Shown here: positions 4,358-43,107 of the stretch, piece by piece | How positions within the stretch are numbered: position 1 is the stretch's first letter | Layout of the letters: each line of letters begins with the position of its first letter | Assembly (NCBI GenBank): GCA_030699565.1 | Contig: JAUYLV010000053.1 | Location: forward strand, 1 to 58,974 | DNA: 58,974 nt | Direction: 5' to 3' | From: a bacterium | GTDB taxonomy: Bacteria; Patescibacteriota; Minisyncoccia; JAUYLV01 | Program-made: the position numbers and the translations under genes | The notes under the pieces: generated by a model | Database searches by the model: none | Told to the model about the DNA's origin: nothing | Seen by the model: the letters and a program-made list of their open reading frames with translations, nothing else

Positions 4358-5362
4358 ATGCCAAAGAAGTTAGGTATCGATCTGGGAACCGCAAATACCC
4401 TTGTTTTCATCCCGAAGAAGGGGGTGATTATTAACGAACCTTCGGTGGTTGCGGTTTCAAAAGACGAAAACCGCATCGTTGCGGTCGGCAATGAAGCAAA
4501 AGAGATGCTTGGCCGGTCCCCCGATTTCATTGTGGTTACCCGGCCCATGCGTGACGGGGTCATTGCGGATTATCGTGTTACGGAGGCGATGCTCCGGTAT
4601 TTTATCCGTAAAGCATCGGGTGCCATCAGTATTTTCAGACCCGAGGTCATTATATCGGTTCCTGCGGGCATTACCTCAACGGAACGCAGGGCCGTCATTG
4701 AGGCGGCGCTGTCGGCGGGCGCTAAGGCGGCATATATCGTCAAAGAGCCGCTGCTGGCGGCGATCGGCGCGGGGCTTGCGGTGCAGCAGCCGAGCGGACA
4801 TTTGGTGGTGAACATCGGAGGTGGCACGTCGGAAGTCGCGGTCATATCGCTTTCCGGCATTGTCACGTGGGCATCGGTGCGCGTGGCGGGCGACAAGCTT
4901 GATCGGGCGATCGTGGAGTACGTAAAACACACCCATAACGTGGCGATAGGTGATCGCACGGCCGAGGAGATTAAGATGCTCATCGGCGCGGCCGTCGAGG
5001 GGGTTGAAGAGCAAGCCGCGCAATTCCGCGGACGCGATCTGGTGTCGGGCCTTCCCAAAACCATCGAAATCACCACCAATGAAGTCGTACGGGCGATTTC
5101 CGAGGAGTTGTACGATATTCTGCGCGCGGTAAAACAGGTGCTCGGGCAGACACCGCCGGAACTGGCCGCCGATATTCTCGAAAAAGGCATGACGCTCTCG
5201 GGCGGAGGCGCCCTGCTGCGCGGCATCGACCAATTCTTGTCGCGCGGCACGGGGATTCCGGCCATGGTGGCCTCCGAGCCGCTCTTCTGCGTTGCCAAAG
5301 GCACGGGCGAAGTTTTGAATAATCTTGATCTCTACAAGCGCGCGGTGATGACGAAGAGATAG
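4358..5362 (+). CDS. mreB: Rod shape-determining actin homologue MreB
   Basis: GIDLGTANTLVF phosphate-1 motif and MreB-like sequence over the full length. Start chosen at MPKKLGIDLG. Confidence 0.9.
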   Translation: MPKKLGIDLGTANTLVFIPKKGVIINEPSVVAVSKDENRIVAVGNEAKEMLGRSPDFIVVTRPMRDGVIADYRVTEAMLRYFIRKASGAISIFRPEVIISVPAGITSTERRAVIEAALSAGAKAAYIVKEPLLAAIGAGLAVQQPSGHLVVNIGGGTSEVAVISLSGIVTWASVRVAGDKLDRAIVEYVKHTHNVAIGDRTAEEIKMLIGAAVEGVEEQAAQFRGRDLVSGLPKTIEITTNEVVRAISEELYDILRAVKQVLGQTPPELAADILEKGMTLSGGGALLRGIDQFLSRGTGIPAMVASEPLFCVAKGTGEVLNNLDLYKRAVMTKR

Positions 5363-14567: not shown

Positions 14568-14694
14568 GATATGCACCCCTTTTTTTAAGAACCATGATGA
14601 AGATACCAAGGAATTAAAGGGCGGTCAAAGGATACATGCGAGGCGATTGCCTTTTGACGCATTACACGATTGCGGAACATAAAAACGCTCAATG

Positions 14695-15303
14695 TCACAT
14701 TGAGCGTTGGCGGCGGATTATTTCGGCGGCTTCCAAAAGATCTATGGCGCGCGCATCGGCGTACGTTGTGGTTTTTTGCGTCTCCCAAAAGGGTGGCTGG
14801 CGAAGCTGGATGCAGAACATCTGCGGATGGCGCAATTTCATCTTTTCGATCTCACGCGGGGCATCATCCAAAAAGAAGTCTTCGTTGGATGGCGCATCCA
14901 GAGAGTCCGCTTTGTGGCCGATGGTGACGTGGATTCGGCTGAAATAGGCATCCAGGTCATTCGCCTGGATCTTGAGCATCTGAAATTCGGGATCTCCGCT
15001 CGTCAGAATGGCGAGGATTGACCTGTCGAAGTTGAACAAAAAATCATGTACATCGGGGAAGACGATGCCGCCCTCTTCCGCGCATTCGATTATTTTATGG
15101 ACAAACGCTTCGCCGATAGTAAGATGTCGCGCAAGCACCGCATGATGGTTTTGGGGAGAATAATAGCCGAATTCTTTCATGACGATTCGGGCGGTTTCTT
15201 CGTAGAGCGCCTGCGGAACGCCAAGGGCTTCGGTCGCATCCTGCTGGCGTTTGGCCAGGCGGAGTGAATCAATGAGGACGTTATCAAGATCGCAATAGAT
15301 CAT
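14695..15303 (-). CDS. HAD-superfamily hydrolase
   Basis: 202 aa. Motif I MIYCDLDNVLIDS (DxD). Confidence 0.7.
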   Translation of the reverse strand: MIYCDLDNVLIDSLRLAKRQQDATEALGVPQALYEETARIVMKEFGYYSPQNHHAVLARHLTIGEAFVHKIIECAEEGGIVFPDVHDFLFNFDRSILAILTSGDPEFQMLKIQANDLDAYFSRIHVTIGHKADSLDAPSNEDFFLDDAPREIEKMKLRHPQMFCIQLRQPPFWETQKTTTYADARAIDLLEAAEIIRRQRSM

Positions 15304-25676: not shown

Positions 25677-25726
25677 ATTTATTTTGCCGATTCTCGATAT
25701 TTTCTATCCACATATCACCAATTTCT

Positions 25727-25749
25727 AAGTTGACTAATTTAGTCAACTT
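25727..25749. promoter_or_regulatory. IscR-type operator O1 (perfect 11-1-11 palindrome) overlapping a TTGACT-17-GATAAT promoter
   Basis: AAGTTGACTAA-T-TTAGTCAACTT. -35 TTGACT at 25730-25735 and -10 GATAAT at 25753-25758. Confidence 0.65.
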
Positions 25750-25761
25750 TAAGATAATGGT

Positions 25762-25787
25762 GTCATTCCTGCCTTCGCGGGAATGAC
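25762..25787. repeat. GTCATTCC..GGAATGAC hairpin module
   Basis: GTCATTCCTGCCTTCGCGGGAATGAC, between operator O1 and the regulator ATG. Confidence 0.7.
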
Positions 25788-25824
25788 AAACGATACAGCA
25801 ATCCATTATCCTCACGCAGCAATC

Positions 25825-26244
25825 ATGAAAATAAGCACTAAAGGATTTTATGCGGTCGAGATACTGCAGGCGCTTGCCGCCTGGCCGCATCGCGCCGGGA
25901 AGCGAGAAGCAAATAATCTTCCCATGACGCTTGCCGATATCGAAGACGGACTGAAAATTCCCCGCGATTATGCCGAGCGAATTTTATTGCGCCTTAAGCG
26001 CGCGGGCATCACGGGAAGCCTGCGGGGAAACGCCGGAGGGGTATGCCTTGCAAAAAAGAACCGCGACATATCGCTTGCCGATGTGTTTGCGGCAGTGGGG
26101 GAGGATATCGCCCCGTGGCGGGCGGCGGCTCCGAAGAAGAACGCAAAGCGACCTATGATCTGCCCCGCGCATCCCGTCTGGCGAAAACTCTACGAGCATA
26201 ACGCGCAATTTTTAAAGCGCACAACGCTTGCGGATTTTATGTGA
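25825..26244 (+). CDS. Rrf2-family transcriptional regulator (IscR-like)
   Basis: 139 aa starting MKISTKGFYAVEIL. Winged-HTH region and GGVCLAK wing. C113-P-A-H116 aligns with IscR C104/H107. Confidence 0.8.
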   Translation: MKISTKGFYAVEILQALAAWPHRAGKREANNLPMTLADIEDGLKIPRDYAERILLRLKRAGITGSLRGNAGGVCLAKKNRDISLADVFAAVGEDIAPWRAAAPKKNAKRPMICPAHPVWRKLYEHNAQFLKRTTLADFM

Positions 26245-26280
26245 GGGGTGGGATTTTACATGATCCGTAGCTGCCACGCC

Positions 26281-26309
26281 TCAAAGTTGACTAAATTAGT
26301 CAACTTTGA
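26281..26309. promoter_or_regulatory. IscR-type operator O2 (perfect 14-1-14 palindrome)
   Basis: TCAAAGTTGACTAA-A-TTAGTCAACTTTGA. It ends 27 nt upstream of the ATG at 26337. Confidence 0.65.
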
Positions 26310-26336
26310 AGGATCGGCCGTATAGGACGGTCTTTT

Positions 26337-26639
26337 ATGAAATACAACAAACTGGTCAGGGATAATATTCCGGAGCACATCAAAGGCAAGGGTGGGATTC
26401 CGGTAACGCATATCGCCGATGACAAAGAGTATTGGCAAAAACTAAAAGAAAAACTCCGCGAAGAAGTTGACGAATTTATAAAAGATGAATCCGCAGAAGA
26501 AATGGCCGATGTATTCGAGGTCATCACGGCCATACTCGAGCATGAGAATTGGACAATCGAGCAGATCGTCGATCTGCAGAAAAAGATGCGCGAGGATCGC
26601 GGTGCATTCAAAAAGCGCATCATATTGGATGAGTCGTAG
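26337..26639 (+). CDS. MazG-like all-alpha nucleoside triphosphate pyrophosphohydrolase (HisE/MazG superfamily)
   Basis: 100 aa. [12 protein letters not shown] start and the acidic helix EEVDEF...EEMADVFEV, typical of the small MazG-like family. Confidence 0.6.
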
Positions 26640-26711
26640 AGTTTTAGAGTGTTTGGAACCTCGATGAAATAAAAAGCGCCCGTTGATACGGGCGATGGAA
26701 TGACGGTTTAT

Positions 26712-26945
26712 TTACTTGGGCAGGATGAGAGAGGCGATCGCGATTATGCCCCAGATGACTTGAAGTGCAACCGCAGGCCAGGCTTTTTTGTGGAACACGT
26801 TAATGCCGACGCCAATGGCACCGATCAGGTTCATGAGTTGATAGACATCGCTTTGCGCCGTTACCTGCTGGCGGGATACAAGCCAGTATGCAAGAACGAT
26901 CAGTATGGTGCCGATCCAGCCGGCAGCCTGGATGAATATTTTCAT
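26712..26945 (-). CDS. Small 3-TM membrane protein (resembles the CBU_0592-type family)
   Basis: MKIFIQAAGWIGTILIVLAYWLVS...YQLMNLIGAIGVGINVF..WPAVALQVIWGIIAI. The family assignment is from memory only. Confidence 0.5.
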   Translation of the reverse strand: MKIFIQAAGWIGTILIVLAYWLVSRQQVTAQSDVYQLMNLIGAIGVGINVFHKKAWPAVALQVIWGIIAIASLILPK

Positions 26946-27035
26946 GGGAGCATCCTCCGAATGTTCAAGCTCTGTCGACAGCATAGCAGACATGTTGTAA
27001 ATGGCAATATAAGGCTAGTCGGCAGTTGTTTCGGC

Positions 27036-27064
27036 TCAAAGTTGACCAAATTAGTCAACTTTGA
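27036..27064. promoter_or_regulatory. IscR-type operator O3 (14-1-14 palindrome, one mismatch)
   Basis: TCAAAGTTGACCAA-A-TTAGTCAACTTTGA. It ends 26 nt upstream of the sufC ATG and faces the divergent small membrane gene. Confidence 0.65.
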
Positions 27065-27090: not shown

Positions 27091-27870
27091 ATGCAAAAAT
27101 CTTTTCTTGCGATTAAAAATCTTGCCGTAACCGTTGAAGGTAAAGCGGTCGTGCGCGATTTTTCGCTTTCTGTCGAGAAAGGTTCCATCCATGCGCTTAT
27201 GGGTCCAAACGGGTCGGGCAAATCGTCGCTGGCATATGCGGTCATGGGGCATCCGGCGTATGCCGTCACACGAGGCAAGATTATTTTTGAAGGCAAGGAT
27301 TTGGCAAAACTGAAACCCGAGGAGCGCGCACGTAAAGGCATCTTTTTGTCGTTTCAGGAACCGCCAGAGGTCGGCGGCGTAGCGCTGGGCACGTATTTGC
27401 GTTCTATCGCAAAAAAACAGTGGTCGCTGCCCGATGTGGATGTGTTGAAGGATGCGGCGGGACGGCGGGCGCAGGTGCGCGAGTCTTCGCTTGCCATGCG
27501 AACCATTAAGGAGTTTGCGCCTTCTTTGGGTATTGCGGAAACGTTTTTTGACCGCGCGCTCAATGAGGGGTTTTCGGGCGGCGAGAAGAAAAAAAGCGAG
27601 ATCCTGCAGATGCTCGCATTAAAGCCAAAGCTTGCCATTATCGACGAGATAGATTCTGGGCTGGATTTCGATTCGCTCAAAGCTATCACTGCGGCATTAA
27701 AAAAAGCCGTCAAAGACGGCATGGGATTGATCCTGATCAGTCATTATACGCGGATCTTCAAGTCGTTGAAGCCGAAGTATGTGCACGTGCTGCGGGACGG
27801 CGAGTTGATTAAAGAGGGCGGTGCCGCATTATTGAAGAAGTTAGACAAAGGTGGATATAGGGATATTTAA
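27091..27870 (+). CDS. sufC: Fe-S cluster assembly ATPase SufC
   Basis: 259 aa. Walker A GPNGSGKSS and ABC signature FSGGEKKK. Confidence 0.9.
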   Translation: MQKSFLAIKNLAVTVEGKAVVRDFSLSVEKGSIHALMGPNGSGKSSLAYAVMGHPAYAVTRGKIIFEGKDLAKLKPEERARKGIFLSFQEPPEVGGVALGTYLRSIAKKQWSLPDVDVLKDAAGRRAQVRESSLAMRTIKEFAPSLGIAETFFDRALNEGFSGGEKKKSEILQMLALKPKLAIIDEIDSGLDFDSLKAITAALKKAVKDGMGLILISHYTRIFKSLKPKYVHVLRDGELIKEGGAALLKKLDKGGYRDI

Positions 27871-27886
27871 ATGTGACTTCGTAAAT

Positions 27887-28026
27887 GTTGTCATCTCCGC
27901 GAAGGGTGAAATGCAATTGTCTTTGCATTTCACGGGCATCTTCCCCGCTTCTAATGAACGAATGACTACCCAGGAGGGGATTCAGATTAAATGTTTTATA
28001 TAGATTCCCGCTTTCGCGGGAATGAC
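27887..28026. repeat. Composite hairpin repeats in the sufC-sufB spacer
   Basis: GTCATCTCCGCGAAGG..., an 11-bp hairpin GTGAAATGCAA-TTGTCT-TTGCATTTCAC, and GATTCCCGCTTTCGCGGGAATGAC. Confidence 0.65.
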
Positions 28027-28041
28027 AGATAACAATTCGCA

Positions 28042-29436
28042 ATGCCATCCAATCAACTCAAAGCTCAGTACCGCTACGGTTTTCACGATAGCGCCGCGCC
28101 TCTCTACCAAATAAAACCGGGTTTATCCGAGCGTGTCGTGGAAGAAATTTCGTCCATAAAAAATGAACCCGCCTGGATGCGGGAATTTCGCTTACGCGCG
28201 TTGAAGGTTTTCGAATCCAAGCCCATGCCGCCATGGGGAGGAGATTTGTCGAATATCAATTTCAACAACATCACATATTATGCAAGAGCGACCGATAAAC
28301 AGTCGCGCACATGGGACGACGTGCCGGCCGAAATTAAAAATACCTTCGATCGCCTGGGTGTGCCCGAAGCGGAACGTAAAATGTTCGCGGGGGTCGGCGC
28401 GCAATATGATTCCGATGTTATTTATCACAACGTCCGTAAAGATTTGGAAAAGCAGGGCGTCATCTTCTGCGACACGGACACGGCGGTGCGCGAATATCCC
28501 GATTTGGTAAAAAAATATTTCGGCACGGTGGTGCCGGTCGGCGACAATAAATTTGCCGCGCTTAATACCGCCTGCTGGTCCGGCGGCAGTTTCATCTATG
28601 TACCCAAGGGCGTTAAAGTGGCCATGCCGCTGCAAGCATACTTTCGTATTAATTCAAAAAATTTCGGACAGTTCGAGCGCACGCTTATCATCGCCGATGA
28701 GGGCAGTGATCTGCACTACATAGAAGGCTGCACCGCACCCGTGTATTCCACGGATTCACTGCATGCGGCCGTCGTGGAAATTATTGTGCATAAAAACGCG
28801 CATGTACGCTATACCACGATTCAGAATTGGTCGAATAATGTGTATAACCTCGTTACTAAACGCGCACGGGCCGAGGAAGGCGCATACGTGGAGTGGATCG
28901 ACGGAAACCTTGGATCAAAACTCACCATGAAATACCCCTCGGTGTTCATGTTCGGGCGGGGTGCGCGGGCGGACGTACTTTCCGTGGCACTTGCCGGTCC
29001 CGGGCAGCATCAGGATGCGGGTGCGAAAGTCGTTCACTTGGCGCCGGATACGGTTTCATCCATCGTCTCAAAATCCGTTTCGTTCGGCGGCGGACGCACC
29101 AGCTACCGCGGGCTTGCCAAAGTCATAAAGGGAGCCGAACGTTCCCGCATCAAGACCCAGTGTGACGCGTTGATTTTAGACCCACAGTCGCGATCAGACA
29201 CGTATCCTACCATGGCTATCGAAGAAGAAAATGTGCGCGTGGAGCACGAAGCTACGGTTTCGCGCATTGGCGACAAAGAGATATTTTATCTGCAATCGCG
29301 GGGCTTGAAGCCAGTGGAGGCGACCAGCATGATCGTTGCGGGATTTTTCGAGCCGTTGGCAAAAGTGCTGCCCATAGATTACGCCATCGAATTAAACAGG
29401 TTAATTGAGATGGAAATGGAGGGAAGCGTTGGATGA
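28042..29436 (+). CDS. sufB: Fe-S cluster assembly scaffold SufB
   Basis: 464 aa, SufB-like throughout (e.g. [27 protein letters not shown]). Confidence 0.9.
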
Positions 29437-29439
29437 ACT

Positions 29440-29697
29440 CCGTTAGAGAACTTATGCGGGGTATGAGACTCTGTGCCGTATAGGAGGAATACCCCACAGC
29501 AAGCCCCGTTAGAGATAAGCCACACGCAGCAAGTAATAATGCCTAGTACCGTTACAAATTAGTTTCGCATGATTAATACGCTTAAGAATGTCTATTTCAA
29601 GCCTCTTTTTATCTCACCGTGGTTGCAGAATTAATTTATAACGGCACTAGGGGCTGAGAAACTCTAAGGGGGCAAGAGGCGGGATATTCTCTAACGG
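29440..29697. repeat. Nested inverted repeats downstream of sufB
   Basis: Outer pair CCGTTAGAGAA (29440-29450) / TTCTCTAACGG (29687-29697), 11/11. Inner pair CCTAGTACCGTTACAAATT (29542-29560) / AATTTATAACGGCACTAGG (29633-29651), 17/19. Confidence 0.6.
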
Positions 29698-29730
29698 GGT
29701 AAACGAAAAACCCCGAACGAATCCGGGGTT

Positions 29731-29911
29731 AGGCTCTGTTGAAAAATAAGTTCTCCAGATTCGGTTTCAGATTTGCTCCAGATTCGGTTTTTCCGATTGA
29801 GTGGAATCCGAGCCGTAGCAGGGCTACGGTGAGGATTTCCGCGATTGAGGAAAAGCCGAAGATGGAGTGAATGTGGAAGCGAGATGCTGAAGTTATTTTT
29901 CAGCAGGGCCT
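29731..29911. mobile_element. MITE-like element, family B, long copy
   Basis: Arms AGGCTCTGTTGAAAAATAAGTT / AAGTTATTTTTCAGCAGGGCCT. Internal CTCCAGATTCGGTTT duplication. Related to 22979-23056. Confidence 0.7.
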
Positions 29912-30126
29912 TAGAGAAAGGCCGTCCCACCCGTCATTATAAAGTCGAAATACTGGACGGTGAGATTGATCATCGAGTGGATGAACCAAGCCGATGCGGC
30001 AACAAAAACGAAGAATATTGTTCCCAAAAGCGTCACCGAGAGGATCTCTTCGTCTCGCGTTTCGGGGACTTTTCCGATCATTTCCGCCTGCGCATTCCGG
30101 TATAGCTGGCGACAGATGGTTCGCAT
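29911..30126 (-). CDS. Small membrane protein (71 aa), antisense to the suf operon
   Basis: AAGGAG SD 7 nt upstream of the ATG. One clear TM (ILSVTLLGTIFFVFVAASAWFIHSMI). Confidence 0.45.
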   Translation of the reverse strand: MRTICRQLYRNAQAEMIGKVPETRDEEILSVTLLGTIFFVFVAASAWFIHSMINLTVQYFDFIMTGGTAFL

Positions 30127-30200
30127 GCATTTACTCCTTTCTTTGATGAAACCGTATCAGGGTAAAGGCCGCGATTTCGCGGCCTTTGGGATGTCTCGGC

Positions 30201-30422
30201 TCAAAAATGGCCGATCATGATCGCAGCTTGCGCCGCATCGAGCGCGGACTGCGTGAATTGAAAGAACTTCAGCAGGGTTTGCTCAAATCCTGCGAAGACT
30301 TCGGACATGAGCAACTGCAGGCCAATGATGAGTAAAACGATACCCACCGCTCGTAAAATCTTCATGGATTTTAGCGAGGAGAGGTTCTTATCGCATGCCG
30401 ACTTTTCATGCGAGCAGCTCAT
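30201..30422 (-). CDS. Small membrane protein (73 aa; or 54 aa from MKILRAVG), antisense to the suf operon
   Basis: TM AVGIVLLIIGLQLLMSEVF. AGGAGGG lies 14 nt upstream of the 30422 ATG. A hairpin AGGCCGCG-ATTTC-GCGGCCT (30164-30190) follows the stop. Confidence 0.4.
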   Translation of the reverse strand: MSCSHEKSACDKNLSSLKSMKILRAVGIVLLIIGLQLLMSEVFAGFEQTLLKFFQFTQSALDAAQAAIMIGHF

Positions 30423-30512
30423 TATTGGCTGCGTTTCCCTCCTGATATCGAAGTTCGTAAAGCGCCGATAGCAGAAGGGAAACGCATATTTCAAGTAGCA
30501 TTTAACTATACC

Positions 30513-31100
30513 ATGGATAAAATAAAACTGTCAAGTTCAAATGAAAATCTATTTCTCTCCGGAGCCGACTTTGCCGGAGGCAGAAAAAATCGCGATATTA
30601 TTCTAAAAAAAAGCGGCGAATCTAGGCGCGTGTTTATTTCGCTTGATGCGGCAGCACCCGAAGCTATATCGCTTGCGATCCGCCTTGCCGGACGCGGCTC
30701 GCGTGCAGAAGTTTTTATCATGCATAGGGGATGGGGAGTTGCGCGCAGTAGTATGCGTGTGATGCTTTCACACGAAGCTGAGGATACGTATGCCCGCGCG
30801 ACATTCCGCTCGGCGCTGCGCGATGCATCCCGTGTAGATTTTGACGGAATGCTGTATATTGCCAAAGGCGCCGACGGCAGCGATTCGTATCTTTCCGCAA
30901 AGGCGCTTATGCTGTCCGATAAAGCCATTGCGCGCATCGATCCGAAGCTTGAAATTCTGGCCAATAGCGTCAAAGCCTCGCATGGCGCCACCGTTGGACG
31001 CTTAAGCGATCAGGATCTATTTTATTTTCAGTCGCGAGGCGTAGACCGTAATGCGGCCGAGAGGATTTTGGTTGAAACATTTTTACGCGAAGCAATGTAG
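30513..31100 (+). CDS. sufD: Short SufD-like Fe-S assembly protein
   Basis: 195 aa from MDKIKLSS. C-terminal SufBD motif region ...KASHGATVGRLSDQDLFYFQSRG. Confidence 0.75.
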   Translation: MDKIKLSSSNENLFLSGADFAGGRKNRDIILKKSGESRRVFISLDAAAPEAISLAIRLAGRGSRAEVFIMHRGWGVARSSMRVMLSHEAEDTYARATFRSALRDASRVDFDGMLYIAKGADGSDSYLSAKALMLSDKAIARIDPKLEILANSVKASHGATVGRLSDQDLFYFQSRGVDRNAAERILVETFLREAM

Positions 31101-31159
31101 AGTTTAATACGTCATGTCGGACTTGATCCGGCATCCACTATGACAGAATGATCAAAGTA

Positions 31160-31282
31160 CTTTGAATTACGAAACTCTCTTTTCTGTCATCCCGGCGAAA
31201 GCCGGAATCCAGGATGCGCGGAAGAATCTTTATCCCGGCTTTCGCCGGGATGACGCTGGGAGCGGGTTTCATAATTCAATGG
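31160..31282. mobile_element. MITE-like element, family A copy 2
   Basis: Ends TTGAATTACGAAAC / GTTTCATAATTCAATGG. Interior GTCATCCCGGCGAAAGCCGGAATCC and ATCCCGGCTTTCGCCGGGATGAC. It ends 4 nt before the sufS ATG. Confidence 0.65.
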
Positions 31283-31286
31283 AAGC

Positions 31287-32501
31287 ATGAATATTAAAGG
31301 CATTAAAAATGATTTTCCGATTTTTCGCGAGCATCCGGGGCTCGTCTATTTGGATTCGGCTGCGACATCACAGAAGCCAAAAGCGGTTATAGACGCCGTA
31401 GCCAATCACTATCGAACACGGAATGCAAACATCCATCGCGGTATTTACAAAATATCCGAGGAGGCTACGGCTGCTTATGATGCTGCTCGGGATGCGGTGG
31501 CAAAATTCATCAATGCGCCGTCATCGCGCAATATCATCTTCGTACGTAATGCAACGGAGGGAATTAATCTTGTCGCGCATGCGTTTGCTCGATCCCGCCT
31601 GAAGAAGGGCGACGTAATTCTTGCAACGCTCATGGAGCACCATGCCAATATTGTGCCATGGCATATGCTGGCGAAAGATCGGGGTATAAAAGTGGCATTT
31701 ACGAACGTAACGTTGGAAGGATATCTTGATGAAGAGGATTTTAAAAAAAAGTTGACGTCAAATGTAAAATTGGCTGCGTGTACCCATGCGTCAAATGTTC
31801 TGGGTACGATTAATCCAGTAAAGCGACTTGTCGCGTATGCCAATAAGAAGGGCATTCCGGTTTTGGTAGATGGCGCGCAGGCCGCTCCGCATCTGCCGGT
31901 CGATGTGCACGATATGGGTTGTGATTTTTATGTGCTTTCCGGGCATAAGATGCTTGCGCCTTCGGGTATTGGTGCGTTATATATGTCAGATGAAATGATT
32001 GATGCGCTGCCACCGTTTATGGGCGGAGGGGACATGATCGAGGCGGTAACCACTGAAGGCTTTACATATCAGCCCGCACCCTTAAAGTTCGAGGCCGGAA
32101 CGCCGGCTATCGAGGCTGCCATCGGATTTGGCGAGGCGATCGTCTATTTGCAAAAGATCGGGATGAAAGCGATTCGAAAACACGAAATTGAACTTACCAA
32201 GTATGCATTGCACCAGATGCGAAAGATCAGGGGGGTTACCGTGTACGGCCCAAAAAAAGCGGAAGACCGCACGGGAGCGATTGCCTTCAGCGTGGACGGT
32301 ATTCATCCGCACGACCTGGCATCGCTATTCGATGCGGAAAATATCTGCGTCCGGGCCGGAAACCATTGCACCATGCCCTTGCATGAGAACGTGCTTGGCG
32401 TAAACGCCACCACCCGCATGAGTTTCTATATATATAATGACATGCAAGACATAGACAAAGCGATACGCGTTTTAAATAATATCATTCGCACGTTGAAGTA
32501 A
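31287..32501 (+). CDS. sufS: Cysteine desulfurase SufS
   Basis: 404 aa. PLP lysine motif LSGHKMLAPSG and active-site loop RAGNHCTMP. Confidence 0.9.
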   Translation: MNIKGIKNDFPIFREHPGLVYLDSAATSQKPKAVIDAVANHYRTRNANIHRGIYKISEEATAAYDAARDAVAKFINAPSSRNIIFVRNATEGINLVAHAFARSRLKKGDVILATLMEHHANIVPWHMLAKDRGIKVAFTNVTLEGYLDEEDFKKKLTSNVKLAACTHASNVLGTINPVKRLVAYANKKGIPVLVDGAQAAPHLPVDVHDMGCDFYVLSGHKMLAPSGIGALYMSDEMIDALPPFMGGGDMIEAVTTEGFTYQPAPLKFEAGTPAIEAAIGFGEAIVYLQKIGMKAIRKHEIELTKYALHQMRKIRGVTVYGPKKAEDRTGAIAFSVDGIHPHDLASLFDAENICVRAGNHCTMPLHENVLGVNATTRMSFYIYNDMQDIDKAIRVLNNIIRTLK

Positions 32502-32516
32502 TTTAATCATTTTACC

Positions 32517-32972
32517 ATGAGGAAAATAATGACCCTCTGTATTATTCAAGATGGCGGTCGCGTGCTTTTGGGAATGAAAAAGCGCGGATTTGGCGTGGGG
32601 CGATGGAATGGATTCGGTGGGAAAGTCGAGGGAAGCGAGACGCCTTTTGACGCCGCGCTTCGCGAAGTTCAGGAAGAGATCGGCGTTTCGGTGCAGGATG
32701 CCAAAAAGCGAGGCAAGCTTGAATTCTTTTTCGAGAAAACGGGAGAGGAGATCGAGGTGCATGTCTACGGCGCCAGCCGCTATGAAGGCGAACCCAAGGA
32801 AGGCGAGGAGATGGCGCCGCAATGGTTTTTGCATGCGGATATTCCCTTCGACAAGATGTGGCCGGATGACAAGCATTGGTTTCCGCTGTTTCTGGCCGGT
32901 AAGAATTTTGAGGGAAAATTTTATTTCACGGATTACGATACGTTCGTAAAACACGAGCTTTACGAAATATGA
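32517..32972 (+). CDS. MTH1/NUDT1-like Nudix oxidised-purine-nucleotide triphosphatase
   Basis: 151 aa. LLGMKKRGFGVGRWNGFGGKVEGSETPFDAALREVQEEIG and IPFDKMWPDDKHWFPL closely parallel human MTH1 as I recall it. Confidence 0.7.
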   Translation: MRKIMTLCIIQDGGRVLLGMKKRGFGVGRWNGFGGKVEGSETPFDAALREVQEEIGVSVQDAKKRGKLEFFFEKTGEEIEVHVYGASRYEGEPKEGEEMAPQWFLHADIPFDKMWPDDKHWFPLFLAGKNFEGKFYFTDYDTFVKHELYEI

Positions 32973-33412
32973 GCAAAGAAGATCTTGAAACATTTAGGCG
33001 CATATGGGAATTAAGCAAGGACTCGCCATACATGGCGAAGATGGAAAAACCCGACCTGGCATTTACCGGTAATAATGCCGTCTGTGGTGACTGGATCGAG
33101 ATAGCCTTCCGAATGAAAGGGAAAAAGATCGTCGAAGCGCGTTTTTTGCACAAAGGCTGCGCTTTGAGCGCCGTTGGGGCTTCGGTGTTTTCGGAATTTG
33201 CGGAAGGGAAGACGCTGGAGGCGGTGAGGAAACTTACCCCGCAAAAACAGCTTGAACTTTTTGGGGCTCCCGTAAGCCCGGCTCGCTCAAAATGCGTTAT
33301 GCTTCCGTTGGAGATTATAAAGAAAAACCCGAGTCAAACTCGGTCATTGAAAGGCGAGGGCGAAGTCAAACTTCGCTCCTATAAAATAAACCCGAGTCAA
33401 ACTCGGTCTTAG
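32969..33412 (+). CDS. sufU: SufU/IscU-like Fe-S scaffold or sulfur acceptor
   Basis: NAVCGDWIEI, HKGCALS and SKCVMLPLE Cys motifs. The last ~29 codons run through the 63-bp tandem repeat. Confidence 0.75.
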   Translation: MSKEDLETFRRIWELSKDSPYMAKMEKPDLAFTGNNAVCGDWIEIAFRMKGKKIVEARFLHKGCALSAVGASVFSEFAEGKTLEAVRKLTPQKQLELFGAPVSPARSKCVMLPLEIIKKNPSQTRSLKGEGEVKLRSYKINPSQTRS

Positions 33413-33450
33413 TAAGGTGAGGGCGAAGTCAAACTTCACTCCTATAAAAA
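33325..33450. repeat. 2 x 63-bp tandem repeat, each unit with two GT-CAA-AC hairpins
   Basis: Units 33325-33387 and 33388-33450. Hairpins CCGAGT-CAA-ACTCGG and GCGAAGT-CAA-ACTTCGC. Confidence 0.85.
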
Positions 33451-42639: not shown

Positions 42640-43107
42640 TGTTATTGGAGGTTATCTTTGAAAACACGTGCCGCATTCAAGGTTCTGCGCCAAGACCTTA
42701 CTTCGGTCGGCTTGCTTGGCGCTCCGCGCAAACGATACCATTTTGATATCTGGAATAGGCCGGATGAGCCGATCTCCCGTCATCCGCGAAAAGGGTGAAA
42801 TTCTCCAGTGGAGAATTTCACGGGCGAGTACGATGTTTCCAATTAATGAAGGCTCGCCCAGGGGGAGGGACTGTGGGTTGCGCCAACGCTGGCGGATGCA
42901 CGGTCGCTGCAGCGATATGCGTTAATGAAGCACGGCATCAAAACGCGGATATTCCGGAGCCGTATTGGCAGAGTGCTTCACCGTACGTCTTGCAGGGTCA
43001 AGACCGATGGAGTTTATTTTACGAAGAGCGACGAGGTGTGCATTTACACCTCCCCCGCGTCAAACGCGGCTTCGCAAGCCCCCTCAATGAGGAGGGGATG
43101 TCCGGTG
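42640..43107. other. Hairpin-dense non-coding region (structured RNA or stacked palindromic units)
   Basis: No credible ORF on either strand. Stems include 42687-42722 (8 bp), 42761-42786 (7 bp), 42795-42821 (12 bp perfect), 42822-42859 (7 bp), 43033-43052 and 43055-43069. Confidence 0.5.

Follow-up and report, generated by a model that had tools for sequence, protein, structure and literature searches.

The question raised by this locus is whether three nearly identical palindromes placed around a small regulator gene are the operators of that regulator, and if they are, by what means the regulator would sense the state of the iron-sulfur (Fe-S) assembly genes that lie next to it. The locus is on a 58,974-nucleotide (nt) bacterial contig (GenBank assembly GCA_030699565.1, contig JAUYLV010000053.1; GTDB lineage Bacteria; Patescibacteriota; Minisyncoccia; JAUYLV01), which was analyzed over its whole length and is called the window here. 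The regulator gene, at 25825..26244 on the + strand, encodes an Rrf2-family, IscR-like protein of 139 amino acids (aa), and a SUF gene cluster for Fe-S assembly occupies 27091..33412. From the sites themselves and their conservation, we consider it likely that the palindromes, O1 to O3, are operators of the IscR-like Rrf2 dimer encoded by 25825-26244, and that they define an autoregulated SUF regulon. What is unusual is the regulator, since it has only one of the cysteines by which IscR holds its cluster.

The palindromes have no strand of their own. O1 (25727..25749) is a perfect 11-1-11 palindrome, AAGTTGACTAA-T-TTAGTCAACTT. O2 (26281..26309) is a perfect 14-1-14 palindrome, TCAAAGTTGACTAA-A-TTAGTCAACTTTGA, and O3 (27036..27064) is also 14-1-14 but with one mismatch, being O2 with a single T-to-C change. 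O2 begins 36 nt past the regulator stop codon, and 27 nt separate its end from the ATG (26337) of a gene that we call MazG-like; the corresponding gap from O3 to the sufC ATG (27091) is 26 nt. The core common to all three is the 19-mer GTTGACYAAWTTAGTCAAC. Allowing up to 3 mismatches, O1 to O3 are the sole matches to it in the window, where 0.02 are expected, and 0/100 shuffles equal the observed count; a search with a 17-mer core returns the same three places only. A weight matrix trained exclusively on sites from other contigs gives O1, O2, and O3 scores of 41.4, 41.4, and 37.5 bits, with a window runner-up at 15.7 and a shuffle maximum of 13.7. An earlier note, made from reading this DNA, had given the coordinates and symmetry of the palindromes, their distances of 27 and 26 nt to the two start codons, and the absence of the core from the rest of the window; the first two are correct on reading the sequence, and the last is upheld by the 19-mer, 17-mer, consensus, and weight-matrix scans alike. 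The runner-up itself, at 26464-26486, is an isolated half-site, AAGTTGACGAATTT, within the MazG-like open reading frame (ORF), and its score is slightly over the shuffle maximum.

The same note had given a consensus for the type-1 site of Escherichia coli IscR and claimed a fit at 23 of 25 positions. That consensus, ATASYYGACTRWWWYAGTCRRSTAT, appears verbatim in PMC3899308, and the count of 23/25 is right for O2, while O1 and O3 match at 22/25. The E. coli iscRB site quoted in PMC12594620 has the same left half as O3, AGTTGACCA. Scanning the window for ATASYYGACTRWWWYAGTCRRSTAT with up to 3 mismatches finds only O1 to O3 against an expectation of 0.00, and a search of the window for an IscR type-2-like motif found none. 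O1, O2, and O3 are identical in kind to the IscR type-1 box, and O1 is also in the place where such a box is found, over the promoter of an iscR-like gene.

Work by Giel and colleagues from 2006 and 2013 is said to have placed E. coli IscR type-1 sites in the iscR promoter. In the window, the best promoter-like site of the region is the TTGACT-17-GATAAT of the Rrf2 gene (25730..25758, + strand), with 10/12 matches by the scanner, the -35 at 25730-35, and the -10 at 25753-58. Its -35 hexamer falls within the O1 left half and most of its spacer is inside O1, so that the overlap proposed in the earlier note holds up in the promoter scan. From this arrangement we infer both binding and the sign of regulation. 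Each Rrf2 dimer would read one 25-bp palindrome, aAaGTTGACTAAnTTAGTCAACTTt, and at O1 it would cover the -35 hexamer and spacer and exclude RNA polymerase, giving negative autoregulation. With 26-27 nt to the start codons, no promoter fits downstream of O2 or O3, so binding would repress there also, by occlusion or by a roadblock of initiation or elongation into the MazG-like gene and suf. The predicted output is a coordinated de-repression of the regulator, of sufCBDS-NUDIX-sufU, and, in this lineage, of a nucleoside triphosphate (NTP) pyrophosphatase.

The palindrome travels with the regulator. Every recovered contig with enough DNA 5' of an orthologous regulator carries it, and it is kept in five other ortholog lineages (46-89% identity), always 5' of the regulator. 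Counting as first sites those upstream of the regulator or its operon, these are at 406-422 in L208/L209 (regulator 89% identical; second site 941-957, past the regulator at the O2 position with the same spacing), 722-738 in L001 (73%; second site 2139-2155, upstream of sufC), 717-733 in L210 (60%; second site 1232-1248), 47-63 in L211 (60%; second site 1864-1880), 1312-1328 in L002 (59%; no second site found there), and 387-403 in L004 (46%; second site 1065-1081, upstream of sufC). A second palindrome is present 3' of the regulator in 4/5 lineages, and where the next gene is known (L001 and L004) it is directly before sufC, which is the conservation upstream of suf that the earlier note had proposed looking for in relatives. 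Over 14 sites in 6 lineages, with the consensus given above, the core is almost invariant though the regulators share only 46-89% identity. TTGACT in the left half-site followed after 16-18 nt by TAnnnT is seen in 7/7 regulator-upstream sites, which places them, like O1, in or over the promoter of an iscR-like gene. The operator/promoter overlap is conserved and the surrounding DNA is not.

The most divergent of these loci is informative about recognition. Both operators of L004 show a symmetric change to CTTGAC...GTCAAG, and its recognition helix has PRD changed to SYN and R to K. Paired changes of operator and recognition helix suggest a direct, cognate readout of the one by the other. Where an operator would be expected, L219 (member P0010), which shares the Tyr/Lys variant, has no more than a degenerate CTTG...CAAG palindrome with 6 mismatches, CTTGCTCAAAAAGGTCAAG, and is weak support for the operator. 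Wherever a contig is of sufficient length to tell (window, L001, L002, L004, and L219), the regulator is found in synteny with sufCBDS. It has in common with IscR this adjacency to Fe-S biogenesis genes, and its control over them is deduced from the position of the operators.

The alternative to a protein operator is that the palindromes act as RNA hairpins, either terminators or attenuators, or belong to a dispersed repeat or miniature inverted-repeat transposable element (MITE) family. Transcribed, they would fold at -12 to -27 kcal/mol with z-scores of -4 to -6.5, O2 sits just past the regulator stop codon, and other small hairpin repeats exist in the window. However, there is no T-run after the palindromes, and the 59 kb hold only three copies, each in a promoter-proximal gap of the one gene cluster. 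What is conserved across regulators of 46-89% identity is the sequence itself and not merely the pairing, and that sequence is a known protein-binding consensus which adjoins iscR genes in unrelated taxa. We regard the hairpin or repeat explanation as very improbable.

The reach of the sequence beyond these relatives was seen by an exact 19-mer scan of metagenome contigs, which matched at least 120 contigs. By tblastn, an IscR-like gene is present in 32 of the at least 120 contigs listed, nearly all right beside the motif, and sufB comes directly after the motif in 4 more among those listed. Among the same listed matches, three regulators are 61-68% identical to E. coli IscR, and at 23 loci the IscR-like ORF starts 10-26 nt past the 19-mer. 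The earlier note had feared a scatter of the motif at unrelated sites; instead the 19-mer adjoins iscR or suf genes in many unrelated contigs. Many of the IscR-like genes among the listed matches are of a 2-Cys type (Cys92 and Cys104, with Tyr at 98), and the 2-Cys loci using the exact 19-mer include L018, L020, L033, L034, L058, L059, L078, and L088. Judging by these sequences, the 19-mer serves widely as an IscR box, for regulators with three, two, or one of the cysteines. Since many 2-Cys regulators are found beside the 19-mer, the ligand sets vary among the users of this operator, with the clade of the window as the extreme case.

The regulator has the Rrf2-type winged helix-turn-helix fold by several measures. 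Pfam PF02082 matches at 1e-22, the TIGR00738 superfamily score of 84.4 bits is above the cutoff of 73.3, and the best matches of a PDB sequence search are E. coli IscR 4HF0/4HF1 at ~1e-11. The AlphaFold model, with a predicted local distance difference test (pLDDT) score of 78, has the Rrf2 fold, and its best PDB fold matches are IscR and CymR with a template modeling (TM) score of ~0.7. The loop 98-116 is of low confidence in the model, and helix 5 begins at residue 117, right after H116. The Xanthomonas-type SUF regulator family TIGR02944 scores 43.3 bits against a cutoff of 110.65, and the protein falls outside it.

Aligned to E. coli IscR, the window protein has Ala at the positions of both Cys92 and Cys98, and retains Cys104 as C113 and His107 as H116. 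So of the Cys3His ligand set (Cys92, Cys98, Cys104, and His107) it has Ala, Ala, Cys, and His. Across its clade of 10 the pattern is x-x-C-(H/D) within an invariant RPxxCPxHPVW, with the Cys in 10/10 and the His in 9/10, the remaining one having Asp. Cys98 is missing from the entire clade and Cys92 from 9/10, one member keeping Cys92. The nearest outgroup sequences are nearly all C-C-C-(H/R). Glu12, on helix 1, and Glu93 are invariant across the family, while Glu43 is kept in 8/10 members and replaced in 2/10. On its ligand residues and its equivalog scores, given below, the protein is not a canonical IscR, and with Cys92 and Cys98 absent its signal cannot be sensed via canonical Cys3His ligation.

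The clade is small. Among 5.8 billion proteins there are only seven other relatives of the regulator, and of 1.84 billion cluster representatives no more than two do better than 1e-30, after which the values drop to ~1e-23, where canonical IscRs start. A profile scan of the contigs of 185,579 species representatives with the regulator family found no relative. The regulator probably belongs to a tiny clade of ~10 sequences from a Patescibacteria-like lineage. For PriA of the window, relatives with at least 46% identity number only three, and the next named matches, at ~30%, are from Patescibacteria; a SufB search of species representatives gives ~63-68% identity in many phyla, with the best at 68% to a Saccharibacteria metagenome-assembled genome, and such matches have no taxonomic value. 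When the operator was looked for at these SufB-matched loci of species representatives, none carried it. One Melainabacteria-like locus has a 3-mismatch site beside a canonical IscR. The window lineage is probably Patescibacteria-like and very sparsely sampled.

How then might this regulator work a type-1 site? In E. coli, type-1 sites are bound only by [2Fe-2S]-IscR, and apo-IscR is kept off type-1 DNA by Glu43 facing T-T steps, an exclusion that E43A relieves (PMC12594620; PMC5411485). Both half-sites here carry TT, where type-2 sites have CC, and the regulator keeps Glu43. Since the TT half-sites go with a Glu43 kept in 8/10 members, E. coli rules would require a "holo-like" conformation for binding. 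Tentatively, at a little under an even chance, we infer that the signal is an oxidant- and iron-labile Fe-S cluster held non-canonically by Cys113, His116, and carboxylates, for which Glu12 of the partner subunit and Glu93 are the candidates. In favor of a cluster, the residues that the clade conserves are the counterparts of Cys104 and His107.

The same conserved cysteine admits another reading, in which the operators and the repressor are as described and the sensor is a thiol switch on the lone C113, with oxidation, persulfidation, or alkylation by electrophiles or quinones releasing the DNA, as in SifR. Throughout the clade two cluster cysteines out of three are gone; in the model, the one invariant Cys stands ahead of the helix beginning at 117; and Rrf2 proteins of the SifR/YwnA type work with one Cys, at the helix 5 N-cap (PMC9218516). 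Accessory genes of an oxidative or electrophile kind fit as well: the MazG-like gene, the NUDIX gene (window, L001, L002, and L004), and the glyoxalase and flavodoxin-like reductase genes of L211. Against these stand the absence of the SifR signature HxxPNPxC and operator TGTAA-N9-TTACA, in whose place are RPxxCPxHPVW and a type-1 box, and the conservation of His116 together with the Cys, as expected of two ligands of a metal. In addition, the main target is Fe-S assembly, and the nearest sequence neighbors are all Cys3 IscRs. We rate the thiol switch as possible and as the weaker of the two proposals. A heme-regulatory-motif reading of the Cys-Pro was considered and is disfavored, in that the canonical 3-Cys neighbors have Cys-Pro there too.

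The loss of the Cys92-Cys98 turn and the make-up of the recognition helix bring in a third proposal, that the regulator is a cluster-less binder, signal-independent or partner-dependent, that buffers suf expression; it would be an "apo-locked" IscR whose helix has adapted to type-1 DNA. The turn is proposed to couple cluster binding to the recognition helix, which it is thought to reposition in holo proteins (PMC5411485), and in the window regulator both of its cysteines are gone. The recognition helix differs from that of E. coli IscR by L39R, S40D, and Q44R, and the replacement of E43 in 2/10 members points the same way. A cluster-less Rrf2 protein has its precedent in CymR, which is controlled by a partner protein (PMC9338935). 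Yet if C113, (H/D)116, and E12 neither acted as ligands nor took part in sensing, one would hardly expect them to be so strictly conserved, and stress-inducible pathways like SUF are normally signal-controlled. A binder of this signal-independent or partner-dependent kind seems improbable to us, and a non-canonical cluster is the reading we carry forward.

The comparison with E. coli IscR shows how far that system serves as a guide. Both have the Rrf2 winged helix, a 25-bp box (22-23/25 here), a site over their own promoter, and control of Fe-S genes, which for the window is deduced, and the window regulator retains Cys104, His107, and Glu43. In contrast to E. coli IscR it is without Cys92 and Cys98 and is far under the equivalog cutoffs. 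The window has a type-1 box at suf, whereas E. coli suf is activated via a type-2 site; the window has one perfect palindrome per promoter, where E. coli has two or three imperfect sites; and within the DNA seen, the window organism has SUF only.

Thermincola potens IscR (PDB 4CIC/4CHU), from a SUF-only Gram-positive, keeps three cysteines. It resembles the window case in having the IscR-like gene beside the suf operon that it regulates, a regulation that is predicted for the window, and the sequence and fold similarity of the window regulator to it is on a par with that to E. coli IscR. The precedent for a single cysteine is in the Rhodobacteraceae (R. sphaeroides RSP_0443; D. shibae, PDB 7ZPN, sequence match to the window regulator 4.9e-10), where a one-Cys IscR-like repressor acts on an isc-suf operon. 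The R. sphaeroides protein with its single Cys is reported to bind an Fe-S cluster all the same and to repress in the cluster-bound form (PMC4618611). It differs in that its cysteine is a non-canonical C-terminal C142 and His residues are not ligands, whereas the window regulator keeps the Cys104/His107 pair, and in having an Iron-Rhodo-box and an iron-uptake regulon where the window has a canonical type-1 box. With its Cys aligned to Cys104 and its operator of type-1, as judged without an Iron-Rhodo-box sequence comparison, the window regulator does not belong with the Rhodobacteraceae single-Cys group.

Likeness to the SifR/YwnA quinone sensors consists in the single conserved Cys before helix 5, the redox- or electrophile-flavored accessory genes, and a repressor released by a chemical signal, which for the window is a proposal. 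Those sensors have HxxPNPxC, TGTAA-N9-TTACA, and no suf link (PMC9218516), and the window family, with RPxxCPxHPVW and the operator GTTGAC-N7-GTCAAC, is not part of their sequence similarity network (SSN) cluster 6 in the same paper. RsrR and NsrR set a precedent for clusters that have under four Cys and draw on Glu, His, or Asp from helix 1 of the partner, and the window Glu12 is on that helix; we take it to be the position numbered 12 in the RsrR ligand numbering. They are only distant sequence matches to the window regulator, with E ~0.007-0.009, and they differ in having two or three Cys and in both operators and regulons. The NsrR cluster uses the inter-subunit ligand Asp8' (PMC5411485), and the RsrR ligands are Cys, Glu, and His as cited in PMC9338935.

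Putting the ligands and the operators together, we lean slightly toward viewing the clade as a natural "two-cysteine-deleted" IscR working on perfect type-1 operators, either with an Fe-S cluster held via Cys, His, and carboxylates, perhaps with Glu12' across the dimer, or as a cluster-free thiol switch.

Several observations weigh against an IscR-type regulon as set out here. The regulator misses the IscR equivalog cutoffs by a wide margin, scoring 73.7 bits against 207.55 for TIGR02010 and 55.1 against 275 for NF008110. With one Cys available, a cluster is not assured. Neither the promoter scan nor the aligned loci allowed a sigma-70-consensus promoter to be assigned to O2 or O3, and regulon membership is read within the 59 kb of the genome that the window covers. 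Finally, Bacteroidetes-like contigs hold the 19-mer as the center of ~40-nt palindromes (GGTAAACYAAGTTGAC...GTCAACTTRGTTTACC), at 5221 and 6110 in L075, 1099 and 1983 in L108, and 708 and 1596 in L123. These palindromes bracket a gene for a 241-aa secreted protein that adjoins a gene for an 854-aa outer-membrane-receptor-like protein, and they may be the site of a different regulator. With the 19-mer found in such unrelated contexts, its sequence alone is not diagnostic of IscR.

The genes that would be controlled begin with the SUF cluster itself, all on the + strand: sufC (27091-27870), sufB (28042-29436), a short sufD of 230 aa with the core domain only (30408-31100), sufS (31287-32501), a MutT-like NUDIX gene (32517-32972), and a SufU/NifU_N-like gene (32969-33412). 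A suf gene set like that of the window adjoins the orthologous regulators. The NUDIX gene is an unusual, conserved companion of SUF. A MutT-like NUDIX is in or beside suf in all four lineages with enough sequence, namely the window, L001 (7235-7690), L002 (2015-2509), and L004 (4115-4588). The orthologous loci also have a short SufD, of 198-214 aa, and have insertions among the suf genes, such as a GIY-YIG gene in L002. The gap of ~970 bp between sufB and sufD in the window (29437-30407) has no convincing ORF. At 33320-33445, two tandem 63-nt units of 89% identity lie over the 3' end of the SufU-like ORF; with this overlap, the annotated C-terminus of the SufU-like protein (..NPSQTRS x2) is probably repeat-derived.

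Between the regulator and suf are two small genes. The MazG-like gene (26337..26639, + strand) encodes 100 aa and has ~1,500 homologs, named by the Joint Genome Institute (JGI) and NCBI as house-cleaning non-canonical NTP pyrophosphatase (MazG superfamily), the closest named ones being from Parcubacteria. It has no Pfam, NCBIfam, or PDB sequence match above threshold, and "MazG-like" is an annotation by homology. An operator stands before this gene only here and in the one 89%-identical relative, L208, while in other Patescibacteria the MazG-like gene is in NUDIX/ITPase clusters without the operator. The second gene (26712..26945, - strand) encodes a CBU_0592-family membrane protein of 77 aa (NF047864, 47 bits against a cutoff of 25). 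It is divergent from sufC and its likely start is at 26945, behind GGAGG. O3 is ~30 bp upstream of the best promoter-like site of the membrane gene, an arrangement that is kept in no ortholog.

The earlier note had predicted that the regulator, suf, the pyrophosphatase, and the membrane protein are co-regulated. For the regulator gene and suf this predicted membership of the regulon is well supported by the conserved sites. The MazG-like gene, with its operator found only here and in L208, is a probable lineage-specific member. Control of the divergent membrane gene by O3 is unsupported.

In L211, glyoxalase-fold and flavodoxin-like/flavin mononucleotide (FMN) reductase genes follow the regulator at 781-1781, before the next operator, in an arrangement that resembles electrophile and quinone response regulons. 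Together with the NUDIX of L002, these glyoxalase and flavodoxin-like reductase genes are a hint of an oxidative-stress flavor among the accessory genes.

Other elements lie in and around the operator-bearing region. A T-run followed by (T/C)(A/C)TCCACA is conserved in six lineages, on the upstream side of the operator nearest the regulator and 8 or 17 nt from it, at 25699-25712 in the window, ~373-385 in L208, and ~689-701 in L001, and also in L210, L211, and L004. It contains a perfect DnaA box, TTATCCACA, in L208 and L001, and CTATCCACA in the window, where DnaA-box-like elements show no enrichment. It could be the site of a second factor or an UP-like element.

The 5' leader of the regulator has a GC-rich hairpin repeat, GTCATTCC...GGGAATGAC, at 25762..25787 (+ strand), a member of the small repeat family D3. 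Copies of this hairpin family (ATTCCNGCNTTCGCGGGAATGACA) are at 25762-25787, 28004-28027, 31186-31208, and 31232-31255, that is, in the regulator leader and the sufC-sufB and sufD-sufS gaps, and the repeat is probably outside the operator system. Spurious ORFs over these repeats read "...IPAKAGI...". A terminator-like hairpin at 26316-26332, between O2 and the MazG-like start, was considered as the rrf2 terminator; it is not kept in the 89% relative L208, where the conserved element at the same offset is an AGGA Shine-Dalgarno, and we treat it as chance. Two further perfect palindromes with a 1-nt center, at 42795-42821 (GTGAAATTCTCCA-T-TGGAGAATTTCAC) and 14684-14708 (AACGCTCAATGT-n-ACATTGAGCGTT), are candidate operators for other regulators.

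The circuit design found here is a known one, the autoregulated IscR-type Fe-S regulon, and what is new is a 1-Cys regulator with perfect type-1 operators. If the view of the clade as a two-cysteine-deleted IscR is true, either mode of sensing would be one not described for suf regulation, and the regulator could reveal the minimal element that lets an IscR read type-1 DNA. No holo-IscR structure exists to show this element (PMC9338935). The locus offers a clean pair of operator and regulator, validated by comparison, in a lineage of very sparse sampling that is probably Patescibacteria-like. To our knowledge, almost nothing is known of transcriptional control in Patescibacteria-like lineages. 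This 139-aa regulator could serve to test if reading a type-1 site depends on a Cys3His cluster in the first place, and it could extend the short list of Rrf2 proteins with unusual ligation.

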